The notes under the pieces were generated by a model. The model worked only from the letters and a program-made list of their open reading frames with translations. It was not told the origin of the DNA and made no database searches. Shown here piece after piece: positions 1-30,850 of a stretch of 32,000 nucleotides of DNA (position 1 is its first letter; every line of letters begins with the position of its first letter). Both the position numbers and the translations under genes were made by a program. This DNA comes from Caldimicrobium thiodismutans (GTDB lineage: Bacteria; Desulfobacterota; Thermodesulfobacteria; Thermodesulfobacteriales; Thermodesulfobacteriaceae): the NCBI RefSeq assembly GCF_001548275.1, contig NZ_AP014945.1, positions 60,001 through 92,000 of the forward strand, in the 5' to 3' direction.

Positions 1-200
1 TACTATTCCCTTCCTAAGTTTTTTTCTATATGTTAGATTTTAAAAAAATTTTTTCAAGAGGTTGTTTAAGTCCCAATCTTTGGTTGAATGTGGGGGCGAA
101 TTACTTTTTAGTTGAAACCTGCCCTGTAAATATTATTCAAAAAATAATTGACCTGGGTTGAGTGTATCTGTCTGTGGCAGGCCTGCCTTAATTAACTACC

Positions 201-404
201 TGTATAAGTTCAGATCCTTACAAGAAAAAAGGAAGGGTGGTAAAAGAGGAATTAGATATCTATACAAGTCTGAAAGTAACACAGGCAATCTTGCCTGTAA
301 AAGTAAATTACACTCCAAGGTATGAAAGTAACACAGACAAGAATGTCTGTGCTACAACATACCCCCAAAAAAATTCAAGGGGTATAAAATTTTAAACCCC
401 TACT
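201..404 (+). repeat. Intergenic modular repeat, copy A (short variant: 5' module, twin hairpin units and G4/C4-flanked AT palindrome; lacks two segments present in copies B and C)
   Basis: Aligns by eye along its whole length with 4649-4863 and with the reverse complement of 30625-30850. Hairpin units at 268-298 and 320-351 are identical to those in the other copies. Confidence 0.85.
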
Positions 405-410
405 ATTTAA

Positions 411-468
411 GTCTCAAAAGATATGGACGCATACAATACATTGACAAGCTTAAAAAGTCTTATATAAT
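411..468 (+). promoter_or_regulatory. Conserved upstream box plus sigma70-type promoter of bioY-purD
   Basis: Box GTCTCAAAAGATATGGACGCATACA at 411-435. -35 TTGACA at 441-446, 16-nt spacer, -10 TATAAT at 463-468. SD AGAGGTG lies 6 nt before the ATG at 496. Confidence 0.7.
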
Positions 469-4017: not shown

Positions 4018-4077
4018 AAATTACATCAATTCATGTGAGAAGTCAATTATTTGTATGCGTCCATATTTTTGAGACTC
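4018..4077 (-). promoter_or_regulatory. Conserved upstream box plus sigma70-type promoter of purK-purE
   Basis: Minus strand reads GAGTCTCAAAAATATGGACGCATACA (4077-4052), then -35 TTGACT (4046-4041), 17-nt spacer, -10 TAATTT (4023-4018). SD AGAGGTG precedes the ATG at 3993. Confidence 0.65.
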
Positions 4078-4133
4078 AAGAGTTTTTTCTACTACTTCTG
4101 TTATAAGAAAATTGAATATGTATAGGAGACATT

Positions 4134-4212
4134 TTGTAGGGACAAACCTATGTGTTTTCCCTCTCACTTTTTTCCACCCTTTCTTTTTCTTGTAAGGATA
4201 TGAACCTATGCA
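4134..4212 (-). repeat. Truncated or variant copy of the intergenic repeat (5' module plus X box, no twin hairpins)
   Basis: Minus strand 4212-4174 reads TTGCATAGGTTCATATCCTTACAAGAAAAAGAAAGGGTGG, which matches the 5' ends of copies A, B and C. 4134-4158 (TTGTAGGGACAAACCTATGTGTTTT) matches 13754-13778. Confidence 0.7.
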
Positions 4213-4617
4213 AAAAAGGTTAGGCTAAATCAAGGTCTTTTTAAAGATAAAAAGTATTGTCTAAATTAAATGAGAGGTCTCTAAAGGAGTGAAGAGGGTA
4301 TGTTCCTGTTTTATCTTTTGTGTTTTATGATTGGAAAAGAGCCTGGGAGTATCCTGAAAGGCCTGTCTGCTAACTGGCAGGATAGAGAAATTTTTAATAC
4401 CAGATGGTTAAGAGAGGGAGATATAAAATCTTTATATGGTAGACTTAAAGAGGGGGTGAAGAAGAGAGGATTTTAAGATATACCAGCGGTTAATTCAGGA
4501 TTCAATAGAGCTTGTCCTTTCCGCTATAGAAGGTAAGCTTGGGCATGTCCCAGAGGAAGCGAGGGAGAGGGGTTGTGGGAAAAGGACAAAGGAGTTCTAA
4601 TTGAAAAAAATATACTT

Positions 4618-4644
4618 GAGTCTCAAAAGGTATGGACGCATATA
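4618..4644 (+). promoter_or_regulatory. Orphan copy of the conserved upstream box (no convincing -10 downstream)
   Basis: GAGTCTCAAAAGGTATGGACGCATATA is followed at the usual distance by TGCATA, which is the first bases of repeat copy B. No TATAAT-like hexamer follows at 15-18 nt. Confidence 0.5.
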
Positions 4645-4648
4645 TAAC

Positions 4649-4958
4649 TGCATAAGTTCATATCCTTACAAGAAAAAGAAAGTGGGGTAAAAGGGGAATT
4701 AGATATCTATACAAGGAAGGCTTTACAAGTCTAAAAGTAACACAGGCAATCTTGCCTGTGGAGGTAAATTACACTCCAAGGTATGAAAGTAACACAGACA
4801 AGAATGTCTGTGCTACAACAGACCCACAAAAAATTCAAGTGGTATAAAATTTTAAACCCCTACTTAAGGAAAGATTTTGCAGATTTTTTATCCTTTCTTT
4901 CCGAAGGGGAACGGGTATGTGGAGAGATTTGTGTTATGGACTAAGAAAAAATCCTATA
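4649..4958 (+). repeat. Intergenic modular repeat, copy B (full-length variant)
   Basis: Roughly nine in ten positions match the reverse complement of 30525-30850 by eye. Contains hairpin units at 4729-4760 and 4781-4812, an AT palindrome at 4838-4861 and an extra ~95-nt 3' module (4864-4958) absent from copy A. Confidence 0.9.
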
Positions 4959-5018
4959 GAGTCTAAAAAGATATGGACGCATACATAAACTTGAAAAGTT
5001 CAAAAGATGGTATATAAT
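4959..5018 (+). promoter_or_regulatory. Conserved upstream box plus strong sigma70-type promoter of tRNA-Pro
   Basis: Box GAGTCTAAAAAGATATGGACGCATACA at 4959-4985. -35 TTGAAA at 4991-4996, 16-nt spacer, -10 TATAAT at 5013-5018. The tRNA starts at 5038. Confidence 0.75.
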
Positions 5019-5037
5019 GTAGAAGCATTGACAGTTA

Positions 5038-5111
5038 CGGGGCGTAGCGCAGCCTGGCAGCGCACCTGCCTTGGGAGCAGGGGGTCGGCAGTTCAAATCT
5101 GCCCGCCCCGA
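5038..5111 (+). tRNA. tRNA-Pro (anticodon UGG)
   Basis: Manual cloverleaf. Acceptor CGGGGCG/CGCCCCG; D stem GCGC/GCGC; anticodon stem CCTGC/GCAGG with loop CTTGGGA (anticodon TGG at 5072-5074). Variable loop GGGTC; T stem GGCAG/CTGCC with loop TTCAAAT; discriminator A. CCA is not encoded. Confidence 0.95.
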
Positions 5112-5185
5112 TCCTCAAGAATGCAAAGGAACACACTCATAACAAGCAAATATTTGAGTTTGGCCCTGCCAGATGGTTTCTACTC

Positions 5186-5208
5186 AAGTTCATTTTCTTA
5201 CAAAAGAG
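5186..5208 (+). repeat. Degenerate copy of the repeat 5' module directly upstream of the lon-like promoter
   Basis: AAGTTCATTTTCTTACAAAAGAG compared with AAGTTCATATCCTTACAAGAAAA in copies A, B and C. Short and imperfect. Confidence 0.4.
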
Positions 5209-5230
5209 TTTGCAGAAAAAATACTCATTA

Positions 5231-5289
5231 AATCTCAAAAAATATAGACCCATAGCATTTCTTGTTTTTTTAAATTTTTTCCTTAGAAT
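5231..5289 (+). promoter_or_regulatory. Degenerate upstream box plus candidate promoter of the lon-like gene
   Basis: AATCTCAAAAAATATAGACCCATAGCA at 5231-5257. -35 TTGTTT at 5262-5267, 16-nt spacer, -10 TAGAAT at 5284-5289. SD GAGGAG at 5311-5316. Confidence 0.55.
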
Positions 5290-5322: not shown

Positions 5323-7686
5323 ATGCCCTGGAAAAAGATTGAATTTAAAGATCTTAAAATTGAAGCTCAATTTTCAGAGGGAACTTTAGCCTTTCATCCC
5401 GAGGAGCTTTTTCCTCATCAAGAACGTCTTGAAAAGGCCTTTGATCTGGCCCTAAGGATAAAGGATGAGGGATATAATGTTTATGTTTGTGGCCCAAGAG
5501 GTATTGGCAGAACAAGATATACTTTAAAGCGTATTGAAGAGGTAGCCAGTAATTTTCCTACTCCTCCTGATTTATGTTATATAAATAACTTTGAAGATCC
5601 AGCCAGACCAAAATGTCTTCAACTGCCAGCTGGTTATGGAAAGAAACTTGAAGAAGGTCTTGAGGAGGCTTTAAATTTCCTTAAAAGAGAGACCTTTAAA
5701 TCCTTTGAAGGAAAGGACTACGAAGAAGAACTTTCCAAGCTTACAAAAGAAATTGAAGCTGAGAAAGAGAAGGTTTTTGCCGAGCTTACTGATGCAGCTA
5801 AAAAATATAATTTAATGGTTCTTTTTGGACCACAAGGTGTAAAGCTTTTACCTCTCTTTAAGATTCAGGCCCCTGTTTCTGAAGAAGAGCTTTTTAAAGA
5901 TCCCAGGATCCGGGAGGAGTATCAAAAAAGCTTGATTGAATTTGAACCAACCTTTCGTGAATACATGCGGAAACTTCGTGATCTTGATACCGCCTTTGGA
6001 GAAGCCCTTTTTAAATTAAGAGATAAGATTGCTGAAAATCTTGTAAATAAGGCCTTTGAAAGACTTGAAGAAACCTTTCAAACTTTAGAAGAGGTTAAGC
6101 TCTATTTCCAGAGCCTGAAAAAAGAGATAATTAAGAATATTCATCTCTTTATAGAATGGGAAAAGGCTCGAGGCAATATTATGGTGCAGAGTGGAATTAA
6201 TAAGGCCTTAAATATGTTCAGAATTAATCTTTTAGTTGATAATTCGCAAACTCAAGGTGCCCCGGTTATTTATGAGAAAGTCCCAACTCTAAAGGGACTC
6301 TTTGGACAGATTAATTATCGTGCTGAAATGGGAATCCTATATGCGGATCATCTAAGTCTTACCGCAGGAAGTCTTCACAAGGCAAATGGAGGTTTTCTGG
6401 TAATTGATCTCTGGGAGATTTTGAAAAATCCTTATATGTGGATTATTCTAAAAAGAGCGTTACTTCACAAAAAACTCCACCTCATGGGCGGGATGATGGA
6501 GGAAATCCCTGTTCCCCATGTAGGACTTCTGCCTGAACCAGCTCCCTTCACAACTAAGGTTTTTCTAATCGGAGATCCCTATCTCTATTATCTTCTTTCA
6601 ACTTATGATGAAGAATTTGGAGAACTTTTTAAAATTAAGGCTGAATTTGATCCTATTTTACCCTTAGATGAGCTAACAGTTAAAACCTTTCCCAGAATAG
6701 TGAAAAAAATGATTCAGGATGACGGTCTGAAAGAGCTTTCTGCTCAGGGCTTAAATGAACTTTTGAGGTATGCTATTACTGAATCAGGCCATAGAAAAAA
6801 GGTTAAATTTATTTTGGAAGATCTTAAAAATGTATTGAGAGAGGCTAACTACCTTTCTAAAAATCAGGAGATAACTTCAGAAGATATTCAAAGAGCATTA
6901 AAAGAAAAGATAAATCGCATGAACCTCTTAGAGGAAAAGATCAGGGAATATATTAAAGAAGGGAAAATACTTCTTTCTGTTGAGGGAAAAAAGATCGGTC
7001 AGATTAACGGTTTAAGTGTAATTAGCCTTGGAGACTATGCCTTTGGCAGGCCTTCAAGAATCACTGCCTCTGTTTATCCAGGTTCTAAAGGGGTAATCAA
7101 TATTGAAAGAGAAATAGAAATGAGTGGTCCAATTCATACTAAGGGAGTTCTTACCCTTTCATCCTATATTTTTCATCGCTATGGTGAAGATTTTCCTCTT
7201 CAACTTTCCTGCACACTCACCTTTGAGCAAGCCTATGAACCTGTTGAGGGCGATAGTGCTTCTTGCGCAGAACTAATAGCTATCCTCTCTGCCATTGCCC
7301 AGATTCCTTTAAGGCAGGATATTGCTGTCACTGGCTCTATCGATCAATTTGGAAATCTTCAGCCCGTAGGTGGAATTAAAGAGAAGGTGGAAGGGTTTTA
7401 TCGGATCTGTAAAATATTAAATTTCACTGGAAAACAGGGTGTTATAATCCCTGTGCAAAATGTAGATAATCTCCTTTGCGATGAAGAACTTCTTGAAGAT
7501 ATCAAAGGAGAAAGGTTTAATCTCTATTCCGCTGAGACCGTTGATGATGTTATTGAACTTCTTACAGGATTAAAGGCAGAAAAATTTCATAAAAAAGTCT
7601 ATGAAAGATTAAAGAAATTTTACGAACTCTCCAAAGAAACCCCAATTAAGAAGAAAAAAAGAAAAAAATCCCCTAAAAAGAAATAA
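5323..7686 (+). CDS. Lon-like protease (LonB/LonC type): AAA-like domain with long helical insertion plus C-terminal Ser-Lys protease domain
   Basis: 787 aa. C-terminal Lon protease domain has GDSAS (catalytic Ser context) and GGIKEK (Lys). The N-terminal P-loop is degenerate (GPRGIGRT, nt 5491-5514) and the Walker B position reads VIDLWE. Lys-rich tail KKKKRKKSPKKK. Confidence 0.8.
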   Translation: MPWKKIEFKDLKIEAQFSEGTLAFHPEELFPHQERLEKAFDLALRIKDEGYNVYVCGPRGIGRTRYTLKRIEEVASNFPTPPDLCYINNFEDPARPKCLQLPAGYGKKLEEGLEEALNFLKRETFKSFEGKDYEEELSKLTKEIEAEKEKVFAELTDAAKKYNLMVLFGPQGVKLLPLFKIQAPVSEEELFKDPRIREEYQKSLIEFEPTFREYMRKLRDLDTAFGEALFKLRDKIAENLVNKAFERLEETFQTLEEVKLYFQSLKKEIIKNIHLFIEWEKARGNIMVQSGINKALNMFRINLLVDNSQTQGAPVIYEKVPTLKGLFGQINYRAEMGILYADHLSLTAGSLHKANGGFLVIDLWEILKNPYMWIILKRALLHKKLHLMGGMMEEIPVPHVGLLPEPAPFTTKVFLIGDPYLYYLLSTYDEEFGELFKIKAEFDPILPLDELTVKTFPRIVKKMIQDDGLKELSAQGLNELLRYAITESGHRKKVKFILEDLKNVLREANYLSKNQEITSEDIQRALKEKINRMNLLEEKIREYIKEGKILLSVEGKKIGQINGLSVISLGDYAFGRPSRITASVYPGSKGVINIEREIEMSGPIHTKGVLTLSSYIFHRYGEDFPLQLSCTLTFEQAYEPVEGDSASCAELIAILSAIAQIPLRQDIAVTGSIDQFGNLQPVGGIKEKVEGFYRICKILNFTGKQGVIIPVQNVDNLLCDEELLEDIKGERFNLYSAETVDDVIELLTGLKAEKFHKKVYERLKKFYELSKETPIKKKKRKKSPKKK

Positions 7687-13612: not shown

Positions 13613-13671
13613 ATTTTAGCTTATATTTGACCAAAAGCAAGCCTTGTGTATGCGTCTATAACTTTTGAAAT
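13613..13671 (-). promoter_or_regulatory. Upstream box plus candidate promoter of purM-glyQ-glyS-selB
   Basis: Minus strand reads ATTTCAAAAGTTATAGACGCATACA (13671-13647), then -35 TTGCTT (13640-13635), 16-nt spacer, -10 TAAAAT (13618-13613). Confidence 0.6.
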
Positions 13672-13753
13672 TTAAATCTACCTATTTGGGGCATATCAAT
13701 CTGCTTTACCCTTAAGTTGTATTGCCTACCCTATGTAAATCTCGTAAATCCCC

Positions 13754-13778
13754 TTGTAGGGCAAACATATGTGTTTGC
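13754..13778. promoter_or_regulatory. X box shared with 4134-4158; contains the perfect palindrome GCAAACA-TATG-TGTTTGC (13761-13778)
   Basis: TTGTAGGGCAAACATATGTGTTTGC compared with TTGTAGGGACAAACCTATGTGTTTT at 4134-4158. 7-bp inverted arms with a 4-nt centre, located in the divergent purM/topA control region. Confidence 0.45.
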
Positions 13779-13879
13779 AAGCTGTAGGTCTTTGCTTTAT
13801 TGGCAGACACTAAAACCTTTTGCGGATCAATTTTGTAAGGAAAATATTATTCAGAAGGTATCTATTTCATTGATAGAAA

Positions 13880-13938
13880 GGTCTCAAAAAATATGGATGC
13901 ATATATGTAGTTGACGAAACCAAATTTGCTATTAATTT
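13880..13938 (+). promoter_or_regulatory. Upstream box plus candidate promoter of topA-cbiL-cbiF-cbiGH-orf-cobU
   Basis: GGTCTCAAAAAATATGGATGCATATA at 13880-13905. -35 TTGACG at 13911-13916, 16-nt spacer, -10 TAATTT at 13933-13938. The ATG at 13948 is only ~10 nt after the -10 and has no SD. Confidence 0.6.
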
Positions 13939-13947
13939 AAATTTTCA

Positions 13948-15627
13948 ATGACTAAAAAGCTTAATGGTAAAAATAAATTTCTTTTCATTGTTGAATCACC
14001 AAGTAAGATTAAGACTTTAAGTAAAATTCTAAATAATTCAGGGCATTCCTTTCTTTTTTTAGCTACCTTTGGACATATTAAGGATCTTCCAATAAAAAGT
14101 ATGGGAATAAATCCCCATACCTTTGACCCCTATCTTGAAGTTCTTAATTCTAAAAGAGCTGTTTTATCTAAATTAAAAAAACTTCTCTCTTCAGTAAATA
14201 AAATTTACATTGCAACTGACCCAGACCGCGAAGGTGAGGCTATTGGATATCATCTTCTTGAATATATTCAGAAAAACCAACCTTTTCCTTTAGAAATTAA
14301 ACGCATTGAGCTTAGAGAAATTACTGAAATTGGTATCAAAAATGCCTTTAATAACTTAAGAGATATTGATGAAAATCTTTACACTGCCTGGAAAGCAAGA
14401 AGAGTGCTTGATAGACTTATTGGCTATAAAGTATCCCCCTTTTTATCCAAAAATTTTAAAAAGGCCCTTTCTGCTGGAAGGGTTCAAAGTCCTGCTCTAA
14501 GACTTATTACAGAGAGGGAAAAGGAAATCGAAACCTTTAGACCAGAAAAGAGCTATTCTCTTATGGTGATAGCAGAGTCTTCTTCAGGAGAGTGCTTTGA
14601 AATTGAACTTTTCTCAAAAAAAGAATTACTTAAAACTAAAAACTCAGAAGGATTATTAGAAATTTTTAAAGAATATCTTGAAGGAAAAGAGATAGAGCTT
14701 TCTTCTATTAAAGATAAAACCTTGAAAAAATATCCGCCTCAACCTTTAAAGACAAGCACTTTGATTGAAGTTGCTGGCAAATTTTTGGGGCTTTCTCCTA
14801 AGGAGACCATGAAGATAGCTCAGACCCTTTATGAAGAAGGATACATAACTTACATGAGAACAGATTCAACAAGGGTAAGTCCTTTGGCTAAGAAGGAGGC
14901 TAAAGCTTATATTGAGAGGCTTTTTGGGAAAGAATATGTGGGAGGTGAGAGAAAGGTTAAGTTATCAGCCCATGCCCAGGATGCTCACGAATGCATAAGA
15001 CCAACTCAAATCCTGAGACAAACACCTCCTATAGGGAAAAGGGAAAGAGCCCTCTATGAACTCATAAAAAGGATTTTTCTTGCCTCACAGATGAGGGAGG
15101 CTATTTATGCGGAGAGAATGTATGTGTTTAAAAATGCATATCTTCCAAAGGATCTCAAACTTATTCTAAAAAGGCAAAAGTTGGTTTTTGATGGATATTT
15201 ACTTCTCCTTGGCAGGGAAGAAAAAGAAGATAAAGATTTTCCAGACCTAAGAGAGGGTGACCTCTTAAAAATAAAAGGTTATAAAATCAAAGAGCATATC
15301 ACTAAGCCACCTGAGAGATATACTCCTCAATCTCTAATTAAAAAATTGGAGGCCCTTGGTATTGGCAGACCTTCAACTTATGCAAGCATGCTTGATATTC
15401 TTTTCACAAGAGGTTATATAGAAGAAGAGGGAAGGTATCTTAAACCAACAGAGCTTGGCAGAAGGGTTTGTGAATTTTTAGAAAGGGTAACCCCACTTTT
15501 TATGGATTATCAATTTACTGCTAACCTGGAAAAAGCCCTTGATGAAATAGCGGAGGAAAAGAGAAGTTATTATTCTACAGTTAAAGAAGTCTTTGAAATC
15601 TTAGAGGGTTATCTTTCAAAAAGATGA
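13948..15627 (+). CDS. topA: Type IA DNA topoisomerase, core only (no C-terminal zinc-ribbon region)
   Basis: 559 aa. Toprim motifs FIVESPSK and TDPDREGEAI, SAGRVQSPALRLI, and active-site Tyr context EGYITYMRTDS. Ends right after the conserved core. Stop overlaps the cbiL start (ATGA). Confidence 0.88.
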   Translation: MTKKLNGKNKFLFIVESPSKIKTLSKILNNSGHSFLFLATFGHIKDLPIKSMGINPHTFDPYLEVLNSKRAVLSKLKKLLSSVNKIYIATDPDREGEAIGYHLLEYIQKNQPFPLEIKRIELREITEIGIKNAFNNLRDIDENLYTAWKARRVLDRLIGYKVSPFLSKNFKKALSAGRVQSPALRLITEREKEIETFRPEKSYSLMVIAESSSGECFEIELFSKKELLKTKNSEGLLEIFKEYLEGKEIELSSIKDKTLKKYPPQPLKTSTLIEVAGKFLGLSPKETMKIAQTLYEEGYITYMRTDSTRVSPLAKKEAKAYIERLFGKEYVGGERKVKLSAHAQDAHECIRPTQILRQTPPIGKRERALYELIKRIFLASQMREAIYAERMYVFKNAYLPKDLKLILKRQKLVFDGYLLLLGREEKEDKDFPDLREGDLLKIKGYKIKEHITKPPERYTPQSLIKKLEALGIGRPSTYASMLDILFTRGYIEEEGRYLKPTELGRRVCEFLERVTPLFMDYQFTANLEKALDEIAEEKRSYYSTVKEVFEILEGYLSKR

Positions 15628-30428: not shown

Positions 30429-30463
30429 CCTGCATCCACCCCCTATGGTAAAATCATTTACCA

Positions 30464-30524
30464 TAAATATACCCTAAAAATTTCTTTTTCAAAGTTTTGT
30501 ATAATTCCATATCTTTTGAGACTC
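30464..30524 (-). promoter_or_regulatory. Upstream box (partly degenerate) plus candidate promoter of the cobT-cobS-cobQ-cbiB-cobD-cbiA operon
   Basis: Minus strand reads GAGTCTCAAAAGATATGGAATTATACA (30524-30498), then -35 TTGAAA (30492-30487), then TATATT or TATTTA 15-17 nt downstream. Confidence 0.55.
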
Positions 30525-30850
30525 TATAGGATTTTTTCTTTGGGCCTAACACAAATTAAATCTTTCCACATACCCGTTCCCCTTCGGAAAGAAAGGATAA
30601 AAAATCTGCAAAATCTTTCCTTAAGTAGGGGTTTAAAATTTTATACCCCTTGAATTTTTTGTGGGTCTGTTGTAGCACAGACATTCTTGTCTGTGTTTCT
30701 TTCATACATGGGAGTGTAATTTGCCTCCACAGGCAAGATTGCCTGTGTTACTTTCAGACTTGTATAACCTCCCTTGTATAGATATCTAATTCCCCTTTTG
30801 CCCCACTTCCTTTTTCTTGTAAGGATATGAATTTATGCAAAGGTTTAATT
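30525..30850 (-). repeat. Intergenic modular repeat, copy C (full-length variant, inverted relative to A and B)
   Basis: The reverse complement aligns end to end with 4649-4958. Hairpin units at 30676-30707 and 30728-30759; AT palindrome at 30627-30650. Confidence 0.9.

Follow-up and report, generated by a model that had tools for sequence, protein, structure and literature searches.

Why does one and the same sequence stand immediately upstream of the promoters of functionally unrelated genes? This question was raised by a 32,000-nt stretch of Caldimicrobium thiodismutans DNA (contig NZ_AP014945.1, positions 60,001 to 92,000; hereafter the window, with coordinates counted from its first letter), in which a box of about 27 nt abuts the -35 hexamers of tRNA, purine, protease, topoisomerase and cobalamin units. 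Since inverted ends and transposase remnants adjoin the box, it is very probably the right terminal inverted repeat (IRR, the transposase-distal end) of an IS481/IS3-like insertion sequence (IS) with a DDE/rve transposase. The copies in the window are, judged by their sequence, internally deleted, non-autonomous derivatives (MITEs, miniature transposable elements with inverted repeats, of 76-342 nt) and solo ends. That the constant spacing to the promoter reflects target choice was given even chances when considered by itself, and the combined statement, a transposon end whose spacing reflects target choice, was regarded as rather probable.

A position weight matrix (PWM) was used to scan the window; eight copies of the box were recovered and nothing else rose above the chance level. 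With the full 27-mer at no more than three mismatches, four sites were found against 0 expected, and with the core TATGGACGCATA at no more than two mismatches, eight sites against 0.8 expected. The degenerate copy upstream of cobT was recovered with the long pattern only and not with the core. A core-like 12-mer, TATGAACTCATA, at 15055-15066 within the topA coding region was without the box context and was set aside as a chance match. The identity of the window copies was graded, with 25-26/27 for the young boxes #1, #3 and #4 and 20-24/27 for #5-#8. All eight copies proposed in the initial annotation were real, with coordinates right to within 1-2 nt, and the position it had assigned to the box (its end 5-6 nt before the -35 hexamer, about -67 to -41) was confirmed far beyond chance. 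Its claim that every transcription unit starting in the window carries the box held for the units whose first gene lies inside the window and failed for the leftward phoH operon, of which the promoter (window ~1-196, gene just outside the window) had no box. No box was found either at the promoter of a Mo-oxidoreductase operon just beyond the right window edge, which was seen in the sister strain L070. Comparison contigs are designated here by L-numbers (L024, L051, L052, L060, L063-L065, L067-L070, L072 and L073).

The distance between box and promoter was nearly invariant. In seven of the eight window copies a TTGACA-like hexamer began exactly 5 nt further on, or 6 nt in the case of purM, and the first genes behind these promoter-side boxes were bioY, purK, tRNA-Pro, lon, purM, topA and cobT. 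The matches of the -35 hexamers to TTGACA were 6/6, 5/6, 5/6, 3/6, 3/6, 5/6 and 5/6, with a -10-like hexamer 15-17 nt further on; a simple sigma-70 scanner reported the tRNA-Pro promoter only (11/12). The geometry was quantified at 11 independent tips facing promoters, which came from three genomes (that of the window lineage, L024 and L060): seven lay in the window and one each in L051, L024 (upstream of rpsT), L060 and a relic in L073. At 9/11 tips a match of at least 5/6 to TTGACA began exactly 5 nt past the tip, compared with a background of 0.0058 per position. When the best -35/-10 pair was searched freely over offsets 0-11, offset 5 was obtained in 10/11 and offset 6 in 1/11, and in all 11 it was the IRR, never the left end, that faced the promoter. 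The mean pairwise identity among ten promoter-side copies was 0.77 for the box (27 nt), dropped to 0.28 in the next 5 nt, rose to 0.64 in the -35 hexamer and was 0.33 in the -35/-10 spacer. The similarity stopped at the tip of the box; the hexamers resemble one another only because all of them are promoters, and they lie outside the repeat.

The box itself belonged to a dispersed repeat of ~340 nt, present in the window in three copies plus fragments. In a BLAST search with MITE copy B, window matches, full or partial, were obtained at 197-435, 4052-4212 and 30498-30839, and further matches in L051 (501-841), L070 (3810-4151) and L060 (4225-4453); the 3' side of each copy, including the 161-nt purK copy and the 76-nt lon copy, ended in the box. 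The element copies ranged from 76 to 342 nt, all their reading frames were broken by stop codons, and at least nine ends were counted in ~40 kb. The 5' ends of seven element copies aligned on TGCATAAGTTCATATCCTTACAAG, outside of which the sequences were unrelated. Aligned from the termini inwards, the left end (TGCATAAGTTCATATCC...) and the reverse complement of the box (TGTATGCGTCCATATCTTTTGAGAC) agreed in 15 of their first 24 positions (shuffle p = 1.4e-4). The termini had the form TG...CA, the left end starting with TGC or TGT and the right end closing with ...ACA (outer tip ...GCATACA-3'); the termini of the IS3 and IS481 families are 5'-TG(T)...(A)CA-3' (PMC10045372; bioRxiv 10.1101/2022.12.17.520857). 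In five of the seven left-end flanks (window 188-196, 4645-4648, 30840-30850 and 4213-4224, and L070 210-221, among the left terminal inverted repeat (IRL) flanks), TAAC or TAAAC was observed at a distance of 0-8 nt outside TGCAT, the terminus, with a few pyrimidines in a row behind it, which could be a target preference, part of the end, or filler.

Remnants of a transposase gene were located just upstream of the box, in the same orientation and reading towards it, in the window and in two other Thermodesulfobacteriaceae contigs, L024 and L060. The remnant of L060 was PRNLKGNAYVERFNRTLKEQFIDFREWQLEE; that of L024, a metagenome-assembled genome (MAG) of Thermodesulfobacterium geofontis, read ERFNRTLEEQF... 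and, past a frameshift, YNTERPHRGMEGKAPLEYFL; and that of the window MITEs contained PKGNGYVERF. Concatenated, the remnants matched the Pfam domain rve_3 with 35 bits (E = 1e-8, cut-off 26.5), and the native remnants matched successive parts of rve_3 with 20.8, 16.8 and 12.3 bits (E = 3e-4, 6e-3 and 0.14). They also matched the C-terminal end of the NCBIfam models for IS481 (28.5 bits) and IS3 (26 bits), far below the whole-protein cut-offs, and the best tblastn matches, on plasmids, were annotated as 'IS481 family transposase' (E about 2e-8). All-frame translation of 4213-4650 and 13647-13905 revealed no further transposase remnants. A transposase-gene promoter inside the left end was also considered and was discarded for its wrong orientation, since the remnants read towards the box.

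The relatives identified through PurM were Caldimicrobium and Thermodesulfobacterium, and the related species compared had 82-89% identical PurM (L063/L064, L065 and L067-69). At lon, the -35 hexamer, the spacer and the -10 hexamer were conserved in L063, L065 and L067, all without the box, and L065 retained even the 5 nt ATTTC. The hexamers of purM and topA were conserved in L063, where homology broke just upstream of the -35. No intact box was present in ~75 kb from three related lineages, and the box as a conserved promoter feature of the Thermodesulfobacteriaceae was rejected on this ground. A scan at a lower threshold showed that the conserved cobT promoter of the sister species L073 was preceded by a box relic of 18/27 in the same register, then CTCAG and TTTACA, and that topA in the sister species retained a partial relic of the core. 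Because such relics are decaying, some of the insertions would be older than the species split; because the promoters of relatives have no box or a relic only, the box would be neither an ancestral nor a required promoter element. The graded identity of the window copies agrees with this, and such a pattern is to be expected of mobile DNA rather than of an element that the promoter requires. The sister Caldimicrobium was found to have an intergenic hairpin repeat family of its own (ACGCAAGCTGAAGCTTGCGGCTACCAGAA; L063 3073-3232, 9867-9905 and 18442-18549; L073 ~5600-5870), which occupied the same intergenic regions as the window MITEs with no fixed distance to the -35.

The repeat was also polymorphic among strains. 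The metagenomic strains L051 (NCBI) and L070/L072 (JGI) were 99.1-99.5% identical to the window. In L051 and L072 (99.4-99.5%), copy B and one box were absent and a single box was left before the tRNA-Pro promoter; the promoter-proximal copy was thus the strain-variable one. The single box was a hybrid: on its left it had the variants of box #3, on its right the variant of box #4 together with the flank of that box, and the crossover fell inside TATGGACGCATA. Three histories would fit the polymorphism: deletion between direct boxes, integration of a circular copy within the box, or insertion plus two small changes. A simple insertion with duplication of TAAAC predicts GCATACA-TAAAC-IRL on the left, and the window has GCATATA-TAAC-IRL. 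The positions of all copies and of the adjoining features are collected in Table 1.

Table 1. Box copies, element copies and adjoining promoters in the window, with putative IRL and IRR assignments
Feature	Position	Strand	Details
MITE copy A	197-435	+	239 nt, internal deletion; IRL starts TGTATAAGTTCAG at 197; IRR is box #1 (409-435)
Box #1	409-435	+	PWM; IRR of copy A
Downstream of copy A		+	ATACA, then TTGACA 441-446, TATAAT 463-468, then bioY
Short purK MITE	4052-4212	-	161 nt; IRL 4212-4169; IRR is box #2 (4077-4052)
Box #2	4052-4077	-	PWM; one base shorter; tip at 4052
Downstream of box #2		-	AATAA, then TTGACT (4046-4041), then purK-purE
Box #3	4618-4644	+	PWM; solo IRR
Downstream of box #3		+	TAAC, then IRL of MITE B (window strain)
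MITE copy B	4649-4985	+	337 nt; IRL 4649-4678; IRR is box #4 (4959-4985)
Interior of copy B			REP-like hairpins 4741-4760 and 4806-4823; transposase remnant FYPFFPKGNGYVERF at 4886-4930
Box #4	4959-4985	+	PWM; IRR of copy B
tRNA-Pro promoter (native)	4986-5018	+	Spacer TAAAC (possible target duplication), -35 TTGAAA 4991-4996, -10 TATAAT 5013-5018
tRNA-Pro gene	5038-5111	+
lon mini-element	5181-5256	+	76 nt; decayed IRL (TACTCAAGTTCATTTTCTTACAAAAG) joined almost directly to IRR box #5
Box #5	5230-5256	+	PWM; IRR of lon mini-element
Downstream of box #5		+	ATTTC, then TTGTTT (5262-5267), the lon promoter
Box #6	13647-13673	-	PWM; IRR, tip at 13647; possible decayed IRL near 13830-13855
Downstream of box #6		-	6 nt, then TTGCTT and TAAAAT, the purM-glyQS-selB promoter
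Box #7	13879-13905	+	PWM; solo IRR
Downstream of box #7		+	TGTAG, then TTGACG, the topA-cbi promoter
MITE copy C	30498-30839	-	342 nt; 92% identical to copy B; IRL at 30839; IRR is box #8
Box #8	30498-30524	-	PWM; IRR of copy C
Downstream of box #8		-	AAACT, then TTGAAA, the cobT-operon promoter

Based on these results, a sequence of events can be proposed for the arrangement. The copies lie directly upstream of predicted sigma-70-type promoters that were not brought by the element; the IRR always faces the promoter, and the -35 begins 5 bp (once 6) beyond its tip. The 5 bp between tip and -35 would represent the target duplication. The transposase would be supplied in trans by a full-length copy and would pick an oriented target beside a TTGACA-like hexamer, either by reading the sequence or by recognising bound RNA polymerase or its sigma subunit, and selection would then remove harmful insertions. 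The conservation of the box would in that case come from its role as a transposase-binding end and from recent spread, not from a need of the host promoter. We infer the 5-bp duplication, the active targeting of the -35-proximal position and copy-out/paste-in transposition from the arrangement of the copies. The common geometry of three genomes makes an accident specific to one host unlikely, and random insertion followed by tolerance would lead one to expect scattered distances, unlike the fixed 5 nt. In its fullest form the proposal is tentative and somewhat doubtful: an IS481-like DDE transposon, together with its MITEs, would seek out sigma-70 promoters and insert just before the -35 in a single orientation, duplicating 5 bp; they would by now have colonised most promoters of this thermophile and might modulate transcription. 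A secondary use of the box as an element similar to the UP element may have arisen.

Several observations weigh against targeted insertion by such an element. No full-length element with an intact transposase was found, and a homologue search with a 56-aa transposase fragment found nothing. The 5-nt flank duplications were imperfect, with GTTTC/ATTTC at lon and ATAAC/TAAAC at copy B; TGGTA/TGGTA at position 500 of L051 was offset by 1 nt and TTTCA/TTTCA at L060 by an A-run, and copies A and C were without a convincing flank duplication. Several of the predicted -10 hexamers were weak. The hybrid box of L051 and L072 would fit deletion by recombination between boxes as well as insertion, and sequence alone is compatible both with targeted insertion and with strong selection for a UP-like effect of the A-tract of the IRR. 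The geometry came from a small sample, ~45 kb of one lineage and two single loci, and two scans of public collections with strict patterns gave almost no further copies. In the genome collection, TCAAAARNTATRGAYGCATA gave 50 matches, of which 49 were single chance matches in unrelated genomes and L024 alone was real; a 22-nt pattern gave nine matches in metagenomes, L060 alone being real, and the five matches of a viral scan were all due to chance. These exact-pattern scans were too strict for diverged copies. The Logan contig L052 starts at window 4972, inside the box, and position 1 of L070 lies near an IS, showing that short-read assemblies break there. Since assemblies break at the box or the adjoining IS, metagenome contigs probably contain fewer copies of the repeat than exist, and the small number of scan matches may be due to this.

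The fixed spacing and orientation would also be accounted for if MITEs inserted at random or with a weak bias and selection acted afterwards, so that only an IRR at -41 survived or spread and the box was exapted as a UP-like or activator site. The UP element is A+T-rich at -40 to -60, resembling AAAWWTWTTTTNNNAAA, and the box, at about -67 to -41, likewise occupies the binding zone of the C-terminal domain of the RNA polymerase alpha subunit (alpha-CTD) and contains an A-tract, CTCAAAAGATAT, at about -62 to -51 that would work as a UP-like site. The retention of the box by the solo IRR (box #7) and by the mini-element (box #5), despite deletion of the body, can be read in the same way. Such exaptation is nevertheless unlikely, because the 5-nt geometry is common to three genomes and already present in young, near-identical copies, and with selection alone one would hardly expect 10/11 to fall at exactly 5 nt and other helical phases to be missing altogether. 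In addition, the oldest copies, #5-#8, are decaying, and the cobT and topA copies of the sister species are at or below 18/27 with the promoter retained. The core GGACGCATACA is G+C-rich (GGACGC), unlike the UP consensus, and the box is part of a mobile repeat and is not conserved with the promoter in relatives. The suggestion of the initial annotation, a host cis-element in the form of a global factor site or an organism-specific promoter extension read by RNA polymerase and merely picked up by repeats, draws on the occurrence of the box (7/7 units that begin in the window, and 9 of about 11 promoters looked at), on its constant position and on its weak dyad TATG-N4-CATA. This suggestion was not supported and is improbable: the inverted end and the transposase remnants travel with the box into Thermodesulfobacterium (L024) and L060, the box is present or absent according to strain, and species with 82-89% identical PurM retain the -35/-10 hexamers with no intact box. 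Nor do the box-free promoters of the phoH and Mo-oxidoreductase operons agree with it, and the centre of the dyad at ~-48.5 is not the usual class I or class II position. The initial annotation was right that the box is no described promoter element; it had also named, as grounds for refutation, an occurrence of the box only as part of the dispersed repeat, and the box does belong to that repeat, yet its link with promoters is genuine and calls for a separate explanation.

If the repeated unit included the -35/-10 hexamers, it would be a mobile promoter delivered facing outwards, as Correia elements or the outward promoters of ISs do. Copies #1 and #4 are indeed 80% identical over 59 nt including both hexamers, and, given the box relics of the sister species, conservation of its promoters is not in itself proof that these came first. 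This explanation was still considered very improbable, given that identity past the tip is at background (0.28-0.33) except at the hexamer positions and that the inverted-repeat symmetry stops at ...ACA. Moreover, box #3 adjoins the left end of another element with no promoter, and three lineages that have no box conserve the lon promoter, spacer included. That the box serves site-specific recombination, in the manner of Xer/dif or of an integron att site, with cassettes moving between boxes, is barely credible. It would explain why the box of L051/L072 is an exact hybrid of #3 and #4 and why inverted box pairs flank the intergenic segments 4052-4644 and 13647-13905, but ordinary homologous recombination between 27-nt direct repeats also gives a hybrid box. 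By inspection, no resemblance to the XerC/XerD arms was found; the adjoining remnants appear to come from a DDE transposase, not from a tyrosine or serine recombinase, and a diverged inverted copy at the other end of the element is what transposon ends typically show.

For an insertion sequence with oriented targeting, the nearest precedent appears to be the ISAba32 subgroup of the IS1202 family, whose members keep a distance of 5-6 bp from XerCD sites on insertion, are always oriented alike and make 5-bp repeats (Siguier et al., bioRxiv 10.1101/2022.12.17.520857; PMC10045372). In this group, insertions occur in tandem with the target-proximal copy the last to arrive, and partial copies keep the proximal end (bioRxiv 10.1101/2022.12.17.520857; PMC10045372); tandem arrays of ISKpn21 are also reported, and the transposase is related to that of IS481, with circular intermediates in which the ends lie ~5 bp apart (bioRxiv 10.1101/2022.12.17.520857). 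The window element is alike in having its end 5 nt (once 6) from the target in a single orientation (11/11), with a repeat that is only partly recognisable. The tandem 'box #3 - TAAC - MITE B - TAAAC - -35', with its polymorphic proximal copy, is similar as well, and the partial copies likewise retain the target-proximal end at the same distance. It differs in its target, which is a TTGACA-like -35 with a -10 and a gene, no dif-like 11-6-11 or xrs site being present, and in the end that abuts the target, which is the right (transposase-distal) end here and the left end in ISAba32. The signature of the IS1202 family is a Q downstream of the catalytic E where K/R would otherwise stand (bioRxiv 10.1101/2022.12.17.520857), whereas the remnant VERFNRTLK has K at E+7. 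By this residue and the differences above, the window element is not a member of the IS1202 family or its ISAba32 subgroup.

Compared with MITEs of the IS481 and IS3 families, the window copies are similar in their small size, imperfect TG...CA inverted ends, lack of an intact gene, C-terminal transposase remnants, many dispersed copies and presence or absence among strains. They are different in that no autonomous parent was found, that target duplications are only partly recognisable and that the -35 is abutted at 5 bp in one orientation, for which no report on these families was found in a full-text literature search. Correia elements, promoter-associated MITEs and IS outward promoters are comparable in being short, in having inverted repeats, in gathering upstream of genes and in being able to affect transcription; in these the hexamers are supplied from within the ends or the distance varies, whereas here both hexamers are outside the element, were not brought by it and lie at a fixed distance. 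A resemblance of principle only exists with Ty3, a yeast retrotransposon that integrates at the start sites of RNA polymerase III through TFIIIB: both are mobile elements placed with a precision of one or two bases relative to a promoter landmark, although Ty3 is a eukaryotic retroelement with another enzyme and another target. The presence of IS-derived MITEs close to promoters is familiar; the literature searched contained no account of a genome in which most promoters have an element abutting the -35 at a fixed 5 bp and in one orientation.

Other features were noted in and around the elements. The MITE body contained two REP-like hairpins (GTAACACAGRCAA..TTGYCTGTG) ~58 nt apart, which were also present at window 300-351 and 30690-30760. 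In the JGI strain L070, an IS110-family element (DEDD_Tnp_IS110 transposase, 340-1563) followed right after the first hairpin of the MITE copy at L070 220-335, and the contig begins ~340 nt before the IS110 transposase gene; the REP-like hairpin may be the target of the IS110 element. Between the purK MITE and box #3, a 58-aa open reading frame at 4301-4477 was a called gene in L051, was kept in three strains and had no Pfam match on record. Upstream of cobT, a 20-nt palindrome, ATGGTAAAATCATTTACCAT, was found at 30445-30464, between the -10 hexamer and the real start codon (30428); its conservation extends to the sister species (L073, ~5948-5967), and it may serve as an operator. The true length of CobT was 352 aa, not the 364 aa of the longest open reading frame, and its sequence was 100% identical to that of the C. 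thiodismutans protein. An Rfam search of the window returned tRNA-Pro only, with no cobalamin riboswitch.

Misread as part of the host promoter, the box would enter the record as a new global motif, and a motif search on the genome would put it first among the 'promoter elements'. For the effects of such ends on expression, promoters that exist both with and without the box constitute a natural series. If the geometry holds genome-wide, it would represent a bacterial case of promoter-directed transposition, and a possible tool for tagging or inserting beside promoters. It would further bear on how transposon ends reach the binding zone of the RNA polymerase alpha subunits and activators, and on the means by which mobile DNA locates safe sites when a genome is compact.

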